From IMG/VR virus record IMGVR_UViG_2740892423_000012: a DNA stretch of 8,581 bases; one strand, written 5' to 3'. Under the pieces are notes generated by a model that saw nothing but the letters and a program-made list of their open reading frames with translations, was not told where the DNA came from and did no database searches. Position numbers and translations under genes: made by a program. The DNA is from a virus. Its lineage: Duplodnaviria; Heunggongvirae; Uroviricota; Caudoviricetes. Positions 1,259-8,581 of the stretch are shown piece after piece. Positions within the stretch are counted from its first letter, which is position 1; every line of letters starts with the position of its first letter.

Positions 1259-1343
1259 AGTCAGAGATAACAATCAACTAATACTGTTTTGTTGATTTTT
1301 GCTTGTAATTGGCGTTCTGGTCTGATTTTTGTGGAGTAAGTTG

Positions 1344-1727
1344 ATGCGTGATATTCAGATGGTTCTTGAGCGTTGGGGAGCGTGGGCGGCTAATAATCAT
1401 GAAGATGTGACCTGGTCGTCCATTGCCGCCGGTTTTAAGGGATTAATTACTTCAAAAGTAAAATCTCGCCCGCAATGTTGTGACGATGACGCGATGATTA
1501 TTTGCGGGTGCATGGCCCGTCTGAAAAAGAACAACAGCGATTTGCACGATTTATTAGTAGATTATTATGTAGTCGGTATGACATTCATGTCACTGGCAGG
1601 TAAGCATTGCTGCTCTGATGGTTATATCGGGAAAAGGTTACAGAAGGCTGAGGGCATAATTGAAGGGATGTTAATGGCATTAGATATCCGGTTAGAGATG
1701 GATATCGTTGTTAATAACTCTAATTAA
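1344..1727 (+). CDS. quuD: late-gene antiterminator Q (phage 82 / QuuD type), 127 aa
   Basis: ATG 1344 preceded by GGAG at 1333-1336. Translation [26 protein letters not shown]...DIVVNNSN*. The track's TTG start at 1329 is an upstream extension. Confidence 0.9.
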
Positions 1728-1916: not shown

Positions 1917-3014
1917 TTAGAACTGGTAAACCAGACCTACAGCAACGATGTCATCAGTGCTTACACCGAGTGCTTTAGTGAAGTCATTTTTGTCAAGCAG
2001 GTTGATTTTGTAATCAACGAAAGTAGACATATTTTTGTTGAAGTAATAGGTTGCACCTACATCAACATATTTGACTAAGTCCTGATCGCCCCATACTCCA
2101 AGATCCTTACCTTTAGATTGCAGGTAAGCAACGGACGGACGCAGACCGAAATCGAACTGATATTGTGCAACAGCTTCGAAGTTTTGGGCTTTATTAGCAA
2201 CGAAGTGATCAGCAAATACAGTCATATTCTGGGTTTCAGAATAGGTAGTGGCCAGGTAAATGTTGTTAGCGTCATATTTCAGACCTGCGGCCCAAACTTC
2301 TGCATTTTTACCGGAAGCAAATACTTCAGGAAGAACTTTCCCTGCATTAACTTGAGTGTCGGTACGATCAGATTTCGCATAAGTTGCACCGATACCGAAT
2401 CCTTCGTATTCATAGGTAGCAGAGAAACCGAAGCCATCACCGTTACCTTCAGTGTAGTTATCGAAATCGCTACGATCGTTTTTGCCTTGGTACTGAGCAG
2501 CAAAGTTCAGACCATCAACCAGACCAAAGAAGTCGTTGTTACGATAGGTTGCAACACCAGTTGCACGTTGAGTCATGAACACGTCGGTTTGAGTCCAAGT
2601 GTCACCACCGAATTCTGGCAGGACGTCAGTCCACGCACCGATGTCGTATGCTACACCGTAGTTACGGCCGTAATCGATGGAGCCGTAGTCACCGAATTTC
2701 AGGCCAGCGAAGGCAAGACGGGTTTTATCTTTGGAGGAACCTTGAGATTCAGCGCGGTTGCCTTTGAATTCATATTCCCACTGACCGAAACCAGTCAGTT
2801 GATCGTTGATTTGGGTTTCACCTTTGAAGCCAAGACGGGCATAAGTAGTATCACCATCATCTGCATCATTAGAGGAGAAGTAGTGCTTAGCATTAACTTT
2901 CCCGTACAGATCCAGCTTGTTACTGTCTTTATTATAAATTTCAGCTGCCTGAGCAGACATCGCCATCAGTACTGATGCAGCTACAGCAGAAATTGCCACT
3001 GTTAATTTTTTCAT
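1917..3014 (-). CDS. nmpC: outer-membrane general porin, OmpC/OmpF family (NmpC/Lc-like), 365 aa with signal peptide; intact
   Basis: ATG at 3012-3014 (complement) gives [23 protein letters not shown]|AEIYNK... (cleavable signal peptide) and ends ...VGLVYQF* with the C-terminal Phe typical of beta-barrel porins. The ORF track's 385-aa version begins at an upstream in-frame ATG. No interrupting insertion is present. Confidence 0.9.
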
Positions 3015-3441
3015 CGTGAGCCCTTTTTTTGAACTATTATTAAAAAATGATGTCACTGCGCGATAAATATTCATCTAATCAATGTGATTATTTCAAGATG
3101 TAAGTTTTGGTTTCTCGTTTGATTTGTGAAGTAGATCTCTATTTTTATCTGAACTTTTTTCTATCGAATCCTATTCATGGCTCTTGGCTGAATAAAAATA
3201 AATCTATTAGCCAATTTATATTAACGGCTGTTATTTATAAGTGCTCTATAATTTGAAGGTTCAATTTAAATTGGCTAAAAATAACGCTGGAAATTATTTG
3301 TTGGTTATTTGTTGAGATTTGCTTATGTATTTGTAGTGGTGTTTTCAATACTCGGTAGCATTCTCGCAAATATCATTTAGTGGTTTACGTACGTAAAAAA
3401 TTGGTTATGCTGTTAAGAGTGGTTACTTCGTCACACAGCTT

Positions 3442-3474: not shown

Positions 3475-3586
3475 GAGTCTCGATATTAGCTGATAACCCA
3501 ATACCTGAGTTATTCACTGACTCCGAGTCTGTTACGTTTCGTAGTATTCCCTCAATTTACACCCGCTTTGTCTGCGAGGTGGGGTT

Positions 3587-3802
3587 ATGAAATCCATGGA
3601 TAAGTTAACAACGGGTGTCGCCTATGGCACCTCAGCAGGTAGTGCCGGGTACTGGTTTTTACAGCTGCTCGATAAAGTCACGCCCTCACAGTGGGCAGCA
3701 ATAGGTGTGCTGGGTAGCCTGGTATTTGGCCTGCTGACGTACCTGACAAACCTTTATTTCAAGATTAAAGAAGATAAGCGCAAGGCTGCGAGAGGTGAAT
3801 AA
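3587..3802 (+). CDS. essD: class II holin of the phage 21 S (pinholin) type with dual-start motif; 71 aa from ATG 3587, 68 aa from ATG 3596
   Basis: Translation [71 protein letters not shown] has two hydrophobic segments and a charged C-terminus. SD GAGGT at 3576-3580. The Met-Lys-Ser-Met start is the classical antiholin/holin pair. Confidence 0.9.
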
Positions 3803-4299
3803 TGCCTCCATCATTACGAAAAGCTGTTGCTGCTGCTATTGGTGGCGGGGCTATTGCTATAGCATCTGTGTTAATCACTGGCCCAAGTGGTAACGATGGT
3901 CTGGAAGGTGTGAGACATAATCCTTACAAAGACATAGTTGGTGTATGGACTGTATGTTACGGGCATACAGGAAAAGACATCATTCCCGGTAAAACGTATA
4001 CCGAAGCAGAGTGCAAAGCCCTCCTGAATAAAGACCTTGCCACTGTCGCCAGACAAATTAACCGGTACATCAAAGTCGATATACCGGAAACAACGCGCGG
4101 CGCTCTTTACTCGTTCGTCTACAACGTGGGTGCTGGCAATTTCAGAACATCGACGCTTCTTCGCAAAATAAACCAGGGTGATATTAAAGGCGCATGTGAT
4201 CAGCTACGGCGCTGGACATACGCTGGCGGTAATCAATGGAAAGGACTGATGACTCGCCGTGAGATTGAGCGTGAAGTCTGTTTGTGGGGGAAACAATGA
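3802..4299 (+). CDS. rrrD: SAR endolysin (T4 E-like lysozyme with N-terminal signal-anchor-release domain), 165 aa
   Basis: ATG overlaps the holin stop (TAATG). The N-terminal Gly/Ala-rich hydrophobic stretch [20 protein letters not shown] is followed by E-x8-D-x5-T catalytic spacing ([16 protein letters not shown]). Ends ...CLWGKQ*. Confidence 0.9.
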
Positions 4300-4754
4300 G
4301 CAGAGTAACCGCGATTATCTCCGCTCTGGTTATCTGCATCATCGTCTGCCTGTCATTGGCTGTTAATCATTACCGTGATAACGCAATCGCCTACAAAGAG
4401 CAGCGCGATAACAAGGCCAGTGAACTGGAGAAGGCGAACGCCACCATCGCTGACATGCGGAAGCGTCAACGTGATGTAGCAGAACTCGACGCAAGATACA
4501 CAAAGGAGCTTGCTGATGCTAACGCGACTATCGAAAGTCTCCGTGCTGATGTTTCTGCTGGGCGTAAGCGCCTGCAAGTCGCCGCCACCTGTGCAAAGTC
4601 AACGACCGGAGCCAGCGGCATGGGCGATGGAGAAAGCCCAGGACTTACAGCAGATGCTGAACTCAATTATTACCGTCTCCGAAGTGGAATCGACAAGATA
4701 ACCGCGCAGGTTAACTACCTGCAGGAATACATCAGGACGCAATGTCTGAAATAA
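4296..4754 (+). CDS. rzpD: Rz i-spanin (inner-membrane spanin subunit), 152 aa
   Basis: ATG 4296 overlaps the endolysin stop (ATGA). N-terminal [21 protein letters not shown] followed by a charged helical periplasmic domain. The track's start at 4284 is an upstream extension. Confidence 0.85.
4516..4701 (+). CDS. rzoD: Rz1 o-spanin (outer-membrane lipoprotein), embedded in the +1 frame of Rz, 61 aa
   Basis: AAGGAG at 4503-4508 sits 7 nt before ATG 4516. Translation [20 protein letters not shown]|[16 protein letters not shown]... has a lipobox Cys and a Pro-rich mature region. It lies wholly inside Rz. Confidence 0.8.
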
Positions 4755-4785
4755 TTTTTTTGCAAATCACAAAGTCCATTTAATG

Positions 4786-4810
4786 AGCCTCGCGATGCGG
4801 GGCTTTTTTG
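4786..4810 (+). terminator. rho-independent terminator after the lysis cassette
   Basis: Stem AGCCTCGC/GCGGGGCT (one G-U wobble) with loop GAT, followed by TTTTTT. Confidence 0.7.
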
Positions 4811-4816
4811 CAATAA

Positions 4817-4843
4817 ATGCGTACCGCAACGCATGTTTTTTTT
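4817..4843 (+). terminator. second tandem terminator
   Basis: Stem ATGCGT/ACGCAT with loop ACCGCA, followed by G and an 8-nt T-run. Confidence 0.55.
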
Positions 4844-4958
4844 ACACCGAACCTGCCCCTTTGGAATGGGCCTTTGAGGATACCAGTTAGTGCTGGCGAG
4901 CCTCGGTGGGCTGGTTTCCTGTGCGGCAAAGGTTCATTTCAAATGGTAGGTAAACGTT

Positions 4959-5480
4959 ATGAATATCGTGCCACTTAATTACAAAGGTGAAATTGTCAGT
5001 TTCAACACTGATGGTTGGATCAACGTCACAGGTGTTGCTGAGAGATTTGGGAAACGCATTGATAACTGGATGCGTTTGGCAGAAACGCTTGAATACGTTC
5101 GTGCTTTAGACGAAGCGTTGACCGGGAAAGAATCTCAAATTTTACATCCCTCACAATCGAGGTATGTAAAAACCAGCAAGGCACGAAAGGACAGGGGTGG
5201 TGGTACGTGGCTACATCCAAAACTTTCAGTTGCATTTGCCCGTTGGTGTGATGCTCGTTTTGCTGTGTGGTGCGATCTGCACATTGATAGTCTGCTTCGC
5301 GGTGAACTGACTGAGCAGCAGAAATATGAGCAAGCATGTCGCATTCGCGATGACCGGAAATCAAAAGCCAGCAATGGGGCAAGAGAGATGGCTCGCTGGC
5401 GATGGGATAAGCCGGTTATTGAAGCAAATGTTGAGTACTGGCGCGAGCAACTGCAGTTGACTCTCGATATCGCGTGCTGA
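4959..5480 (+). CDS. KilA-N domain protein, 173 aa
   Basis: ATG 4959 with a weak SD (AGGT, 7-nt spacing). The segment GGTWLHPKLSVAFARWCDARFAVWCDLHIDSLL matches the conserved core of the KilA-N DNA-binding domain as remembered. The C-terminal third is charged and helical. Confidence 0.7.
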   Translation: MNIVPLNYKGEIVSFNTDGWINVTGVAERFGKRIDNWMRLAETLEYVRALDEALTGKESQILHPSQSRYVKTSKARKDRGGGTWLHPKLSVAFARWCDARFAVWCDLHIDSLLRGELTEQQKYEQACRIRDDRKSKASNGAREMARWRWDKPVIEANVEYWREQLQLTLDIAC

Positions 5481-5697
5481 TGGCAAACGCAAAACTGCGT
5501 TATCGAAAAAATCAAAGCATTACTAGAACTGAGCAACGGCTATCCATTACAAAGCCCATCTACGGGTGGGCTTGATAATGGCTTATACCCTGCACGGGAT
5601 AACTTAACTGATATCCCTTTTAACGGATAAAGGCATTCAAGCCTGACACATCATGCGCTGTATCGTCGCCGTATTCCCGCATTAACCATGACCGTAG

Positions 5698-5949
5698 CCC
5701 GACGGGGAATTCCTTCTGCGTGAGTGTGCGGGAATAATCAAAAACGATGCACACCGAGTTTTTACCGCGTTTATGGTTCGCGGGTTTGTCTCTCATGCTC
5801 CCCGTTCTGCTGCTTGGTTCTTCACGTTACGTGGTTGTCTCCTTTACCCGGAAGATCTGGAGCGCGTCACGCAGATTATTAATGGTGGGAAAAACGGCAT
5901 TAAAGACCGCCGTGAACGTTACGTCAAAGCTAAAGTCGCATTGGTGTGA
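5698..5949 (+). pseudogene. C-terminal remnant of a GH19 (chitinase-like) endolysin
   Basis: Frame-1 translation ...SHAPRSAAWFFTLRGCLLYPEDLERVTQIINGGKNGIKDRRERYVKAKVALV* carries the family-19 IINGG..G motif and a degenerate AWF motif. In-frame stops lie immediately upstream (5689-5697) and no N-terminal catalytic half exists in any frame between 5481 and 5697. Confidence 0.4.
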
Positions 5950-5968
5950 GGTCTATGTGGGAATTGAA

Positions 5969-6247
5969 ATGATTGTCGGCCTGATTGCTGCCTTGCTGGC
6001 AGTAATAGCCGGTGCTTTTGGTCTGGGTAAATCTCGCGGTGCAAGTATCGCTGAGACAAAAGCGAACCAGCAACGCACTAAAGAACGTGCAACTGCTACT
6101 GAAGTCGTTGCAATACGCCGGGTAGAAACAACAAAAGGAGCCTGGGATGTACAGCAGATTGTTAATCATCTTCCTGATGGCGATGTTGACCGTGAGTTGC
6201 GCGAAAGATTTACCCGAAAAAACTGCAGTAACAGACACGGCTTGTGA
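5969..6247 (+). CDS. i-spanin-like protein (N-terminal TMD plus charged helical domain), 92 aa
   Basis: ATG 5969 lies 20 nt after the endolysin-remnant stop. Translation MIVGLIAALLAVIAGAFGLGKSRGASIAETKANQQRTKERATATEVVAIRR.... The 166-aa track ORF from 5747 is an upstream extension through the endolysin remnant in another frame. Confidence 0.5.
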   Translation: MIVGLIAALLAVIAGAFGLGKSRGASIAETKANQQRTKERATATEVVAIRRVETTKGAWDVQQIVNHLPDGDVDRELRERFTRKNCSNRHGL

Positions 6248-6362
6248 CTGGGTGAACATCATCTACCTCACTGAGCACGATATTACCGTGCAGGATAAGC
6301 AGACGAAGCGGGACATATTGGCGCATAACAAATCAGTGCAGGCTAACTGTAGAATGTATTGA
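6147..6362 (+). CDS. o-spanin-like outer-membrane lipoprotein, overlapping the 3' end of the previous gene in the +1 frame and extending beyond it, 71 aa
   Basis: Strong SD AAGGAG at 6135-6140, 6 nt before the ATG. Signal peptide with lipobox MYSRLLIIFLMAMLTVSC; the mature part contains two further Cys residues. The overlapped (P2 LysB/LysC-like) architecture is typical of spanins. Confidence 0.55.
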   Translation: MYSRLLIIFLMAMLTVSCAKDLPEKTAVTDTACDWVNIIYLTEHDITVQDKQTKRDILAHNKSVQANCRMY

Positions 6363-6515
6363 AACTAATACTTTTGTAAGCGAATGTGTGTAAGTGCGAC
6401 ATGGTTGTGTGTTTTATCTAAGAATTGTTTTGCCGTAAAAGAGCATTTTGTGGTTGTAAAAAATGTGGGGAACTCGCTATAGTTCAGCCATAGAAAGCAG
6501 CTTTTCATTTTTTTT

Positions 6516-6536
6516 AAGCCTCATTTGAGGCTTTTT
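6516..6536 (+). terminator. putative rho-independent terminator
   Basis: Stem AAGCCTC/GAGGCTT with loop ATTT, followed by a T-run, and preceded by a T-run. Confidence 0.45.
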
Positions 6537-6561
6537 GCACATTTAGAAATTGAGTAAATGG

Positions 6562-6599
6562 CACATATAGTGTTTTCAGTGTTAAAAAAACACTATATG
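6562..6599. promoter_or_regulatory. perfect 14-bp inverted repeat (operator-like) with overlapping -10-like hexamer
   Basis: ACATATAGTGTTTT (6562-6575), 10-bp spacer, AAAACACTATATGT (6586-6599). TATAGT at 6566-6571 lies inside the left arm. The repeat sits 26 nt upstream of the 66-aa ORF start. Confidence 0.45.
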
Positions 6600-6624
6600 T
6601 AGCACTACAATAGGAGATTCCACT

Positions 6625-6825
6625 ATGAGCCCGGCTGAGTTCTACGATTTCTATGGCATTAAACCTGCAGAGATGATGACTGGAGAAACTGTTAACAACT
6701 TTGCTTCCAGGGTACTTGCTCAACAAACGAGTACGAGTGGTAGTACCGGCGTTTGGTACTCTCAAGGTACTGCAGCGCAGGCTAAGCAAAATCAAAGTAC
6801 ACATCATCAACTTTACACCTACTAA
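6625..6825 (+). CDS. small hypothetical protein (66 aa), first gene of a two-gene operon
   Basis: Good SD AGGAG at 6611-6615, 9 nt before ATG 6625. Translation MSPAEFYDFYGIKPAEMMTGETVNNFASRVLAQQTSTSGSTGVWYSQGTAAQAKQNQSTHHQLYTY. The stop is 5 nt before the next ATG. No family recognised. Confidence 0.55.
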   Translation: MSPAEFYDFYGIKPAEMMTGETVNNFASRVLAQQTSTSGSTGVWYSQGTAAQAKQNQSTHHQLYTY

Positions 6826-6830
6826 ACACC

Positions 6831-7733
6831 ATGCCTAATTGGAGTGACGTACTGGGCGAGATGACGGCTCTCGCCCAGAAGAGTCCGATGGATGAGGTTC
6901 GCCGTAAATATTTATTACAACTGTCTAATCACACTGGAAGAAATGTAATTACATATTATTCCGGATGGTTGCAACATGGTGGTGCAGAAGTCCGACATCT
7001 CACCCTGATGACAGATGATGATAAAAATGGATTAATGACTGTTATTAATGGTTTAGATGTTACAAAGGGGGTGGATTTAATATTACATACCCCTGGAGGT
7101 GATATCGCTGCCTTAGAGTCTATTGGTCATTATCTGCGTTCTAAGTTTGGGACTGATATCAGAGCTATCGTTCCTATGATTTCAATGTCATGTGGTACCA
7201 TGCTTGCGTGCTGTGCTAATGAAATCATAATGGGTAAACAGTCCAATATTGGCCCGATTGACCCTCAGTTTAATGGATTTTCTACACATGCTATTATTGA
7301 GGAATGGAATAGAGCTCAGGCGGAAATTTTTAACAATCCAGCAGCTGTGCAAATGTGGCAGTTTATACTTCAGAAACTCAACCCCACTATTATCGGAGAG
7401 TGTGAAAAAGCTATCCAATGGGCGAATGAGATTGTCAAGCACTGGCTTATGACGGGTATGTTTGCAAATGATCCGGAGTCAGAAACAAAAGCAACTCATG
7501 TATGCTCAGAGCTGAACAATCATCATACAACTTACACTCATTCGAGACATATCCATTTCGATAAAGCTCAGAAAATTGGATTGAATGTTACAGAACTGGA
7601 AAGTGATCAAGTCCTCCAGGATTTGGTTTTGACCATACATCACAGTTACATGCACTCGTTTGGTGGAGCCCCGATCGCAAAGATCATAGAAAACCATAAT
7701 GGGAATGCTATGATTTGGAATATGCAATCGTAA
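6831..7733 (+). CDS. ClpP/SppA-fold serine peptidase (S49 / SDH 'serine dehydrogenase proteinase'-like), 300 aa
   Basis: LILHTPGGD motif (compare ClpP/SppA ...SPGG) followed by ISMSCGTMLA with a candidate nucleophile Ser. The gene is visibly AT-rich relative to its neighbours. There is no SD before ATG 6831 (suggesting coupling to the upstream ORF); alternative in-frame starts exist at 6861 and 6888. Confidence 0.75.
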   Translation: MPNWSDVLGEMTALAQKSPMDEVRRKYLLQLSNHTGRNVITYYSGWLQHGGAEVRHLTLMTDDDKNGLMTVINGLDVTKGVDLILHTPGGDIAALESIGHYLRSKFGTDIRAIVPMISMSCGTMLACCANEIIMGKQSNIGPIDPQFNGFSTHAIIEEWNRAQAEIFNNPAAVQMWQFILQKLNPTIIGECEKAIQWANEIVKHWLMTGMFANDPESETKATHVCSELNNHHTTYTHSRHIHFDKAQKIGLNVTELESDQVLQDLVLTIHHSYMHSFGGAPIAKIIENHNGNAMIWNMQS

Positions 7734-7755
7734 GAACCTATTTACACACCATATT

Positions 7756-7781
7756 AGCCTCGCAGTAGCGGGGCTTTTTTA
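7756..7781 (+). terminator. rho-independent terminator; near-duplicate of the 4786-4810 terminator
   Basis: Stem AGCCTCGC/GCGGGGCT with loop AGTA, followed by TTTTTT. The stem arms are identical to the terminator after Rz. Confidence 0.7.
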
Positions 7782-7904
7782 TGCGCATCGCACGCGCACA
7801 TCAAAGAGAGTCTTTCAGTAATGATTCTGGATATCATAGCTATAAATACAATTGATAGTTATTTTCATTTTGGCGGGTCCTTTCCGGCGATCCGACAGGC
7901 TACG

Positions 7905-8093
7905 GGGCGGAAGGCGCGCGGGTTTTCGCTATTTATGACAATTTTCCGGTTTAAGGCGTTTCCGTTCTTCTTCGCCGTAACCTAATGTTTTTATTTAAAA
8001 CACCCTATGAAAAGAAAGGAAACGACAGGTGCTGAAAACGAGCTTTTTGGCCTCTGTCGTTTCCTTTCTCTGTTTTTGTCCGTGGAATGAACA
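7905..8093 (+). other. cos packaging site: cosN-equivalent 12-mer (7905-7916) plus cosB (terminase small-subunit and IHF binding region)
   Basis: 7917..8093 (CGCGGGTTTTCGCTATTTATGA...GTCCGTGGAATGAACA) closely matches the lambda left-end cosB sequence as I remember it, and ...CGATCCGACAGGCTACG upstream matches the lambda right end. The 12-mer between them is GGGCGGAAGGCG. Confidence 0.65.
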
Positions 8094-8581
8094 ATGGAAG
8101 TCAACAAAAAGCAGCTGGCTGACATTTTCGGTGCGAGTATCCGTACCATTCAGAACTGGCAGGAACAGGGAATGCCCGTTCTGCGAGGCGGTGGCAAGGG
8201 TAATGAGGTGCTTTATGACTCTGCCGCCGTCATAAAATGGTATGCCGAAAGGGATGCTGAAATTGAGAACGAAAAGCTGCGCCGGGAGGTTGAAGAACTG
8301 CGGCAGGCCAGCGAGGCAGATCTCCAGCCAGGGACTATTGAGTACGAACGCCATCGACTTACGCGTGCGCAGGCCGACGCACAGGAACTGAAGAATGCCA
8401 GAGACTCCGCTGAAGTGGTGGAAACCGCATTCTGTACTTTCGTGTTGTCGCGGATCGCAGGTGAAATTGCCAGTATTCTCGACGGGCTCCCCCTGTCGGT
8501 GCAGCGGCGTTTTCCGGAACTGGAAAACCGACATGTTGATTTCCTGAAACGGGATATCATCAAAGCCATGAACAAAGCAGC
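8094..8581 (+). CDS. nu1: terminase small subunit Nu1 (lambda type), 5' partial: 162 codons, runs off the window
   Basis: Translation MEVNKKQLADIFGASIRTIQNWQEQGMPVLRGGGKGNEVLYDSAAVIKWYAERDAEIENEKLRREVEEL... is recognisably lambda Nu1 with its N-terminal winged-helix DNA-binding domain. It is absent from the ORF track only because no stop occurs within the window. Confidence 0.9.
   Translation, partial: MEVNKKQLADIFGASIRTIQNWQEQGMPVLRGGGKGNEVLYDSAAVIKWYAERDAEIENEKLRREVEELRQASEADLQPGTIEYERHRLTRAQADAQELKNARDSAEVVETAFCTFVLSRIAGEIASILDGLPLSVQRRFPELENRHVDFLKRDIIKAMNKA

Follow-up and report, generated by a model that had tools for sequence, protein, structure and literature searches.

In the late operon of phage lambda, internal terminators are read through by Q-modified RNA polymerase. 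A terminator of the type considered here is already known from other lambdoid phages: the records of phi80 and HK544 mark one downstream of Rz (Table 1), those of HK639, mEp235, mEpX1, HK106, ES18 and N15 mark related copies, and HK97 and HK022 also carry them. Morons (Juhala et al. 2000; reviewed in PMC3594210) are additions to a phage operon that are transcribed independently, each having a promoter and a terminator of its own, and that show a deviant GC content. For the exchange of modules among lambdoid phages, short conserved "boundary sequences" or linkers have been put forward as mediators (earlier work, as cited in PMC3029335).

The window, i.e. the whole analysed stretch of 8,581 nt of a Caudoviricetes prophage (IMG/VR record IMGVR_UViG_2740892423_000012), contains two such hairpins, T1 and T2. 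A pattern search of the whole window for AGCCTCGC-loop-GCGGGGCT-T6 returned exactly two matches, both on the + strand, in agreement with the original prediction of two hairpins with the same stem and a difference in the loop only; their starts had been placed correctly, but their ends (4810 and 7781) each one base too far. The motif was found in none of 200 dinucleotide-preserving shuffles of the window. The stems are identical, including a U·G wobble at stem position 5, and a repeat finder reported the pair as family D4. Judged by sequence, both look like rho-independent terminators of the ordinary type, with 6–7 G-C pairs per stem, loops of 3 (T1) and 4 nt (T2), a T6 run abutting the stem, and a location on the late-transcript strand 31 nt (T1) and 22 nt (T2) past the stop codons of Rz and of the SDH protease. 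The predicted RNA folds reach −14.1 kcal/mol (z −3.35) for T1 and −15.2 kcal/mol (z −5.14) for T2, with no equally stable shuffle for either. Occurrences of the hairpin elsewhere have the placement of a generic terminator: 70 of 110 viral and 77 of 105 genomic ones have the end of a same-strand ORF no more than 80 nt upstream, as compared with 13 and 29 in the converging-strand control. A consensus terminator scan ranked T2 at the top and did not list T1 with its 3-nt loop. An Rfam search at E≤1 that covered the window in full returned nothing at T1, T2 or the ~90-nt leader behind T1, its only matches being two spurious miRNA ones (that to mir-223 arising from the palindrome upstream of orf66).

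Table 1. Features of the window and the corresponding terminators of two reference phages (window positions unless an accession is given).
Feature	Position	Strand	Remarks
S (lysis cassette gene upstream of Rz)	3587-3802
R (lysis cassette gene upstream of Rz)	3802-4299
Rz spanin gene	4284-4754	+	End of intact lysis cassette; Pfam Phage_lysis 2.1e-39
T1, predicted intrinsic terminator hairpin	4786-4809	+	8-9 bp stem, GAT loop, T6
Second small hairpin	4817-4843	+	ATGCGT-ACCGCA-ACGCAT, then T8; conserved partner of terminator
Structured leader	4861-4951	+	Long imperfect hairpin; ends ~8 nt before KilA-N start
KilA-N / Rha-like regulator gene	4959-5480	+	Pfam KilA-N 8.2e-22; PHROG 129
Backbone piece	5544-5762	+	Common to most lambda-type relatives, with or without hairpins
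GH19 endolysin remnant	5794-5949	+	N-terminus missing; left end of second, truncated lysis cassette
Spanin-like gene pair	5957-6247 and 6147-6362	+	Second lysis cassette; PHROG 1026, 1275 "Rz-like spanin", E ~1e-27
Terminator-like hairpin	6517-6537	+	AAGCCTCA-TT-TGAGGCTT plus T-run; upstream of protease moron; -10.1 kcal/mol, z -3.75
AT-rich region, candidate moron promoter/operator	6542-6618	+	Sigma-70-like matches, 13-bp-arm palindrome, GC 0.35
orf66	6625-6825	+	Moron cargo
SDH/ClpP-like serine protease gene	6831-7733	+	Moron cargo; Pfam SDH_protease 3.7e-22
T2, predicted intrinsic terminator hairpin	7756-7780	+	8 bp stem, AGTA loop, T6
Stub of terminator-small hairpin-leader unit	7782-7821	+	Small hairpin 7782-7798 plus ...GAGAGTCTTTCAG; stops where long leader hairpin would begin
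Lambda-type cos block	7853-8093	+	Conserved block begins 7850-7853 in 71 loci
Nu1 small terminase gene	8094-8581	+	Runs off window; 99-100% identity in 80 loci; annotations
phi80 post-Rz terminator	NC_021190 43609-43631
HK544 post-Rz terminator	NC_019767 38175-38197

Base for base, T1 is AGCCTCGCGATGCGGGGCTTTTTT, the sequence annotated as "terminator" in phi80 and HK544, and it occupies the same place after Rz with a rha/kilA-type gene next to it. T2 is one loop base apart from the copy in HK639, and the stub to its right is 91% identical to HK639 2725–2790. While phi80, HK544 and their kin have a single copy behind the lysis genes, the present prophage has a second one behind the protease moron and, unlike in the reference phages, all that follows this second copy is a truncated form of the downstream unit. 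As with the terminators of the lambda late operon, T1 and T2 share strand and operon context, with a Q gene (1329–1727, Pfam Phage_antitermQ) upstream of them; the read-through of T1 and T2 themselves is putative.

The gene pair in front of T2, orf66 and the protease (PHROG 25714 and 11747; GC 0.40–0.42), resembles morons in its lower GC, its polymorphism among relatives, its two alternative sites and the terminator always found at its end. GC is 0.35–0.42 over 6350–7850 as compared with 0.47–0.50 over 3500–6200. The moron is absent from most of the 80 lambda-Nu1 loci, and the full T2 context occurs in 7 of 5426 E. coli genomes. Every protease homolog examined (63–100% amino acid identity) has a terminator 20–40 nt downstream, at either site of the moron (after or before the lysis cassette), and the stems behind homologous protease genes include compensatory variants (AGCCTCAC/GTGGGGCT, AGGCTCGC/GCGGGCCT and AACCTCGC/GCGGGGTT); a further compensatory stem variant is AGCCTCGG/CCGGGGCT. 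The pair departs from described morons in its promoter, a putative one that is only a consensus match, and in its putative expression in the lysogen; three sigma-70-like matches fall at 6454–6611, and across the window matches of this kind are no commoner than in shuffled sequence. The prophage sRNAs of Tree et al. 2014 (PMC4104026) were considered and set aside, as they concern a moron site just downstream of pR' and not the Rz–cos region.

The region between the two hairpins (~3 kb) had been described as holding all the non-canonical cargo. The KilA-N gene, the lysis remnants and the protease are indeed located there, but a porin gene (1917–3074, − strand) lies outside the bracket, between Q and the holin gene. 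Moreover, the region is composite, and its KilA-N and protease parts are inherited separately. Cassette 1 (4810–5542) consists of 4810–4958 plus the KilA-N gene, and one relative (L124) presents its empty site, in which the terminator is followed by 4 nt (ATTG) and then by the window sequence from 5543 onward. The backbone piece comes next, with alignments spanning 5544/5654–5756/5762 in most of the 80 loci. A third block (5763–7852) is made up of the truncated second lysis cassette, the protease moron, T2 and the leader stub; its GH19 remnant is assigned from the RefSeq annotation of three loci (L001, L313 and L314) that are 99% identical here, and this part has 64% nucleotide identity with the endochitinase region of HK639. 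Alignments terminate within or just past the stub, at 7816–7824, in 28 loci. Further right is the cos block, in which we take ~7866–7915 to be cosQ/cosN by comparison of the sequence with lambda cos.

Overall, T1 and T2 are very probably members of one widespread late-region lambdoid terminator family, each in its own transcription unit, and the hairpin would be present twice in the window because two cassettes of separate origin have met there. By the same assessment, the repeat was in all likelihood neither created by nor used for the insertion of one island. T1 would close the S-R-Rz cassette and at the same time be the first element of a unit composed of terminator, small hairpin, leader and a rha/kilA-type gene, whereas T2 would close a low-GC moron behind the truncated second lysis cassette, with no more than a 40-nt stub of that same downstream unit left before cos. 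Going by what is established for lambda, in a lysogen, or with polymerase lacking the Q modification, both hairpins should stop transcription: T1, together with the hairpin/T8 element, would keep the potentially toxic KilA-N gene silent, and T2 would block moron transcripts from crossing cos into Nu1/A. During lytic growth, Q-modified polymerase coming from pR' would pass through both. The hairpin may additionally act as microhomology for exchange.

The alternative that survives best, albeit as an unlikely one, is convergence, i.e. that T1 and T2 are unrelated and share a very common GC-rich stem without ancestry or exchange. The exact stem with its T-run does occur in more than 120 species (Bacteroidota, Bacilli, Pseudomonadota, Acidobacteriota and others), it is found in many unrelated viral contexts too, and other stems can occupy the terminator position upstream of the small-hairpin motif. 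On the other hand, the similarity of T1 and T2 runs beyond the stem into the same trailing small hairpin (ATGCGYA...YGCRCA, ~70% identity between the copies), the HK639 unit matched by the T2 stub runs on into the same leader family that follows T1, and the association of one stem with at least 14 left flanks in the lambdoid pool argues for spread and not repeated invention. Common descent of T1 and T2 would rest on the flanking small hairpin and the family context and could not be proved from the stem alone, because the exact stem occurs in unrelated phyla.

Still less probable is the reading proposed originally, by which the ~3 kb would be one accessory island that entered, or was exchanged, by recombination between the terminator copies, so that island-free genomes keep one copy. 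The hairpin edges are real homology breakpoints, as this reading expects, and the hairpins hold up as module boundaries: in the fetched loci 22 window alignments end at 4808–4809 and 27 begin at 7753–7757, and, of the 980 E. coli genomes with T1 (among 5426 complete ones), about half lose homology exactly at 4809. Furthermore, phi80 joins the left flank and loop of T1 to a right flank of the T2 type, and in many phages flanks reassort around the hairpin. But the two halves of the cargo separate in relatives, each with its own hairpin only: T1 and KilA-N occur without T2 in L135, L143 and HK544, and the protease and T2 without T1 in L142, L315, L317 and E. coli EC14 and E47, precisely the kind of genome (same cargo, other copy missing) that had been named beforehand as contradicting a single island. 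Joints also lie away from the hairpins, internally at 5542/5544 and ~5762–5795 (inside the truncated endolysin gene), while the cos block is joined at 7852/7853, 72 nt past T2 and not at T2 itself. Contrary to the expected single copy, the 64 lambda-Nu1 loci have no hairpin between Rz and cos in 42 cases, one in 22 (each with other cargo) and two in none, where the loci are non-independent events and the hairpin itself had served to retrieve some of them. Neither the 5426 E. coli genomes nor the fetched viral loci yielded a T1×T2 deletion product or a locus linking the T1 left flank to the T2 stub-plus-cos junction; both hairpins in the present arrangement were found in one of these genomes. 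The stretch between the direct repeats does not behave as a single element, since its halves separate and the L124 empty site covers cassette 1 only. The exact stem is, besides, that of a generic terminator, as its spread over more than 120 species shows. The partial-cargo relatives already go most of the way to refuting the single-island reading. A target-site-duplication or mobile-element model was rejected as well, there being no unit-wise presence/absence and no transposase.

Local duplication, by which T2 was copied from T1 inside the present prophage (e.g. by slipped or ectopic recombination), would fit the identical stems and T-runs but retains a practically negligible probability, as the two hairpins have different loops, T2 and its flanks are 99–100% identical in the five T1-less prophages listed above, and the T2 right flank resembles HK639-type units and not the right flank of T1.

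With T1 and T2 regarded as members of one terminator family, their relation to the proposed boundary sequences can be considered. The 159 unique hairpin occurrences fall into 80 types by their left flank and 71 by their right flank; one of the right types is combined with 14 of the left ones, and the left flank of the Rz type with 3 right types. The 24-nt hairpin resembles the boundary sequences in that it is short, stands at module junctions and is kept between otherwise unrelated flanks, both of which reassort. It differs from them in having an obvious terminator function of its own, and therefore its conservation needs no recombination role, while crossing-over within it is putative. The loop mostly tracks the left flank, and the AATA loop is combined with many left and right types, a pattern which, at the level of sequence, is suggestive (no more) of crossovers inside the hairpin. 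Its recurrence at mosaic joints would follow from its use at the ends of many different units.

The structured leader beside T1 belongs to a family confirmed by covariance model R1, which was built on a manually supplied structure and scores 71.8 bits here; covariation and the folds of individual sequences add to the evidence. RNAalifold on a plain MAFFT alignment gave the inner stem only, because of a one-column shift in that alignment. A promoter scan between T1 and the KilA-N start found no promoter-like site, and the small-hairpin motif, considered as a sigma-70 promoter, has by eye no convincing −35/−10. We tentatively suggest that terminator, small hairpin and ~90-nt covarying leader might form a conserved composite adaptor that precedes interchangeable late-region accessory genes (rha, kilA-N, a GIY-YIG-like gene, an N15 gp59-like ORF) in lambdoid phages.

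As originally posed, the question of the hairpins matters little, these being ordinary terminators. What emerges is a base-level map of how an Rz-to-cos region was put together from three or more pieces with separate inheritance, and a case showing that a single insertion cannot be deduced from identical short repeats flanking the cargo. The repeated coincidence of a terminator with mosaic joints is relevant to the long-standing "linker sequence" view of modular evolution in phages. The part most deserving follow-up is the structured leader beside T1. Two further suggestions that go with the composite adaptor would be new if true: that phage recombinases use it as a portable patch of homology for shuffling such cassettes, and that the leader is a hitherto undescribed cis-regulatory RNA controlling the expression of these often toxic genes, perhaps as an RNase III site or through translational control.

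The window covers the end of the late region of a lambdoid prophage. Parts of it are matched by hundreds of phage records and, among 5426 complete E. coli genomes, by 4471; its cos, read against lambda cos, is taken to be lambda-type. A pattern search with AGCCTCGC-N(2-6)-GCGGGGCTTTTTT returned exactly two matches, both on the plus strand, one following Rz (T1) and one following the SDH/ClpP-like protease gene (T2), and none in 200 shuffles. The two hairpins, which differ only in the loop (GAT in T1 vs AGTA in T2), fold stably (-14.1 and -15.2 kcal/mol, respectively, with no shuffle equally good), are directly followed by T6 and lie on the late-gene strand, 31 nt past the Rz stop and 22 nt past the protease stop. 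The original prediction of a duplicated hairpin differing solely in its loop is thus borne out, as is its placement, except that both end positions had been set one base too far.

Features of the window and of related phages discussed in the text
Feature	Position	Strand	Remarks
Q antiterminator	1329-1727		
Porin gene	1917-3074	-	Pfam Porin_1, E 5.6e-157; between Q and holin
Holin, lysozyme, Rz	3587-4754		
T1	4786-4809	+	terminator hairpin
Cassette 1	4810-5542		small hairpin, leader, KilA-N
Small inverted repeat after T1	4817-4834		ATGCGT-N6-ACGCAT
Structured leader	4861-4951	+	~90-nt imperfect hairpin
KilA-N gene	4959-5480		
Backbone piece	5544-5762		in most relatives
Replacement of usual pre-cos sequence	5763-7852		GH19 endolysin 3' end, two spanin-like genes, moron, T2, 40-nt stub
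Spanin-like ORFs	5957-6362		
AT-rich palindrome	6550-6618		13-bp arms CATATAGTGTTTT..AAAACACTATATG
Small ORF (orf66) and SDH/ClpP-like protease	6625-7733		
T2	7756-7780	+	terminator hairpin
Small inverted repeat after T2	7782-7798		TGCGC-N7-GCGCA
Lambda-type cos block	from 7853		alignments start at 7850-7853 in 71 loci
Nu1	from 8094		
Leader in phi80 (locus L203)	2180-2270 and 3775-3848		
Leader in HK544 (L205)	2248-2338		
Leader in HK639 (L206)	2784-2874		

In phi80 and HK544 the identical 24 nt of T1 carry the annotation of a rho-independent terminator; they stand directly behind Rz and a rha or KilA-N gene follows. Annotated relatives of this terminator occur in HK639, mEp235, mEpX1, HK106, ES18 and N15. 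T1 together with its left flank is present in many lambdoid phages, and T1 itself in 980 of the 5426 E. coli genomes. The exact stem with its T-run is shared by over 120 viral contigs of diverse kinds and by over 120 bacterial species spread over unrelated phyla. Across the viral and bacterial sets, an ORF ends on the same strand within 80 nt upstream of the stem in 64-73% of cases, vs 12-28% in a converging-strand control. This placement bias, combined with the wide occurrence, marks the sequence as a generic, efficient-looking terminator rather than a specialised site; the feature is real, of an ordinary kind and of low general interest. Two or three copies of the exact terminator sequence also stand close together, over a few hundred to 1600 nt, in unrelated bacteria, namely a Hyphomonadaceae MAG (L359; 7-29, 121-143 and 1571-1593) and a Chitinophagaceae MAG (L372; 174-198 and 379-403), so that phages are not alone in having this stem several times in one place.

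The ~3 kb between the hairpins had been proposed to form a single accessory island. Comparison with 80 loci carrying the window's Nu1 gene, with annotated relatives and with protease loci points instead to a composite interval, the halves of which separate in relatives, each with its own hairpin only: T1 and KilA-N occur without T2 in L135, L143 and HK544, and the protease part with T2 occurs without T1 in L142, L315, L317 and E. coli EC14 and E47 (EC14 having bor in place after Rz). The left edge of cassette 1 is the exact end of the T1 T-run, and its empty site in loci of the L124 type consists of a terminator of the T1/T2 family, 4 nt (ATTG) and window sequence from 5543 onward. L136, L161, L195 and phage Chlobot follow the window at 98-99% identity until 4809 and then diverge. 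L136 (4759-5300), like L161 and L195, keeps the terminator, small hairpin and leader but has a different gene after them, which from its translation looks GIY-YIG/T5orf172-like; these three loci illustrate cleanly how a cassette is replaced at T1. The backbone piece (core 5654-5762) is non-coding-looking and 82-99% conserved in most lambda-type relatives whatever the surrounding cargo; a similar sequence lies downstream of bor in lambda itself. The GH19 remnant and the spanin-like genes, which match PHROG spanins, represent an HK639-like lysis cassette (64% nucleotide identity).

Nor does the interval hold all of the non-canonical cargo, as had been claimed, since the porin gene lies beyond the bracket as a second insertion of accessory DNA; a terminator-like hairpin (1778-1761, minus strand) lies alongside it. 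Genomes lacking the island had been expected to carry a single terminator copy between Rz and cos; 64 lambda-Nu1 loci, non-redundant and extending 4 kb upstream, contain no copy in 42 cases, one in 22 and two in none. The window's arrangement of both hairpins recurs in only one of the 5426 complete E. coli genomes (NZ_AP027764). It is also found, with the same spacing, in L316 (IMGVR_UViG_2648501669_000006), which matches nine of nine window proteins compared at 100% identity and probably represents either the prophage from which the window comes or a clone of that prophage. The product expected from T1 x T2 recombination was found neither among the fetched loci nor in the 5426 E. coli genomes.

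Because it occurs across phyla, the stem alone cannot settle whether T1 and T2 are related. Both are followed by a small inverted repeat, the family motif of which (GCGCATCKCACGCGCA) is found a few to ~20 nt past a terminator in many lambdoid phages, with arm changes that keep pairing and with variable spacing; the copy after T1 bears its own T8 run. In a sample fetched by this motif alone, most members had a terminator hairpin immediately upstream, usually with the T1/T2 stem and sometimes with another. The right flank of T2 (7782-7821) is 91% identical to an HK639 unit continuing into a long leader and rha, and it stops exactly where the leader hairpin would start, while the leader after T1 belongs by covariance model to the same family as the HK639 leader. 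Judging from these sequence comparisons, T1 and T2 are very probably positional homologs that both head one composite unit (terminator, small hairpin, leader and rha/kilA-type gene).

The leader, whose 3' end lies just ahead of the KilA-N ribosome-binding site, has two stems (outer and inner), a 6-nt internal loop on the 3' side and an apical region. The same architecture was obtained from different sequences when 17 diverse relatives were folded singly, and a covariance model gave 93 instances in 100 sources; among them, phi80 and HK639 each have one ahead of rha, and phi80 has another ahead of a second ORF. The leader covaries strongly. In the model-fitted alignment, where fitting biases toward structure, 78% of cells pair (vs 31-45% with partners slid by 1-3 columns), double changes affect 16 of the 23 pairs, and pairing reaches 88% in the two inner helices. 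No match to the leader was found in Rfam.

T2, for its part, belongs to the protease moron. A terminator hairpin stands ~20-40 nt past the protease homolog in all 33 viral loci compared (63-100% amino-acid identity), at either of the two alternative sites of the orf66-protease pair, past the lysis cassette or ahead of it (pR'-proximal). The latter site is occupied in L334, L338, L340 and L343-L347 among the homolog loci L318-L347. Stem variants at this position (AGCCTCAC/GTGGGGCT, AGGCTCGC/GCGGGCCT and AACCTCGC/GCGGGGTT) show compensatory changes, a drift that argues for selection on pairing. GC content is 0.35-0.42 over 6350-7850 vs 0.47-0.50 upstream. Morons are defined by their own promoter and terminator and by deviant GC (PMC3594210), a definition that the orf66-protease segment fits in its GC deviation, polymorphic presence and T2, the promoter being a consensus match only. 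The AT-rich palindrome overlaps promoter-like sites upstream of orf66 and could be an operator for the moron; it is also the source of a spurious mir-223 match in Rfam.

Among loci aligned to the window, 22 have alignments ending at 4808-4809 and 27 have alignments starting at 7753-7757; of the 980 E. coli genomes with T1, roughly half lose homology at exactly 4809. Clustering of the 100-nt flanks of 159 unique hairpin occurrences yielded 80 types on the left and 71 on the right; a single right type occurs with 14 left ones, and the Rz-type left flank occurs with three right ones, these breakpoint and flank counts referring to loci, not independent events, in a sample partly retrieved via the hairpin itself. 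In phi80, the left flank and loop of T1 are joined to a T2-type right flank. Such breakpoints and flank reassortment indicate that the hairpin marks mosaic joints, elsewhere as well as here; the predicted module boundary therefore stands, but not the insertion or exchange of an island through the repeat. Crossovers inside the 24 nt are a candidate origin of the joints; alternatively, the units may simply end with a selected terminator. The hairpin resembles the 'short conserved boundary sequences' that PMC3029335 cites in connection with phage mosaicism.

Where the terminators lie, how they are built, how far they are conserved and how their stems vary in a compensatory way are observed here; beyond this, their action may be pictured by analogy with the established biology of the lambda late operon. 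Polymerase unmodified by Q would stop at T1 and at the hairpin with T8 (4817-4843), leaving KilA-N silent in the lysogen; a promoter scan found no promoter-like site between T1 and the KilA-N start codon. The conserved leader immediately ahead of rha/kilA-type genes could, speculatively, serve as a site for RNase III or as an element that controls translation. T2 would halt moron transcripts before cos and prevent run-on into Nu1/A, and during lytic growth Q-modified polymerase would read past both T1 and T2.
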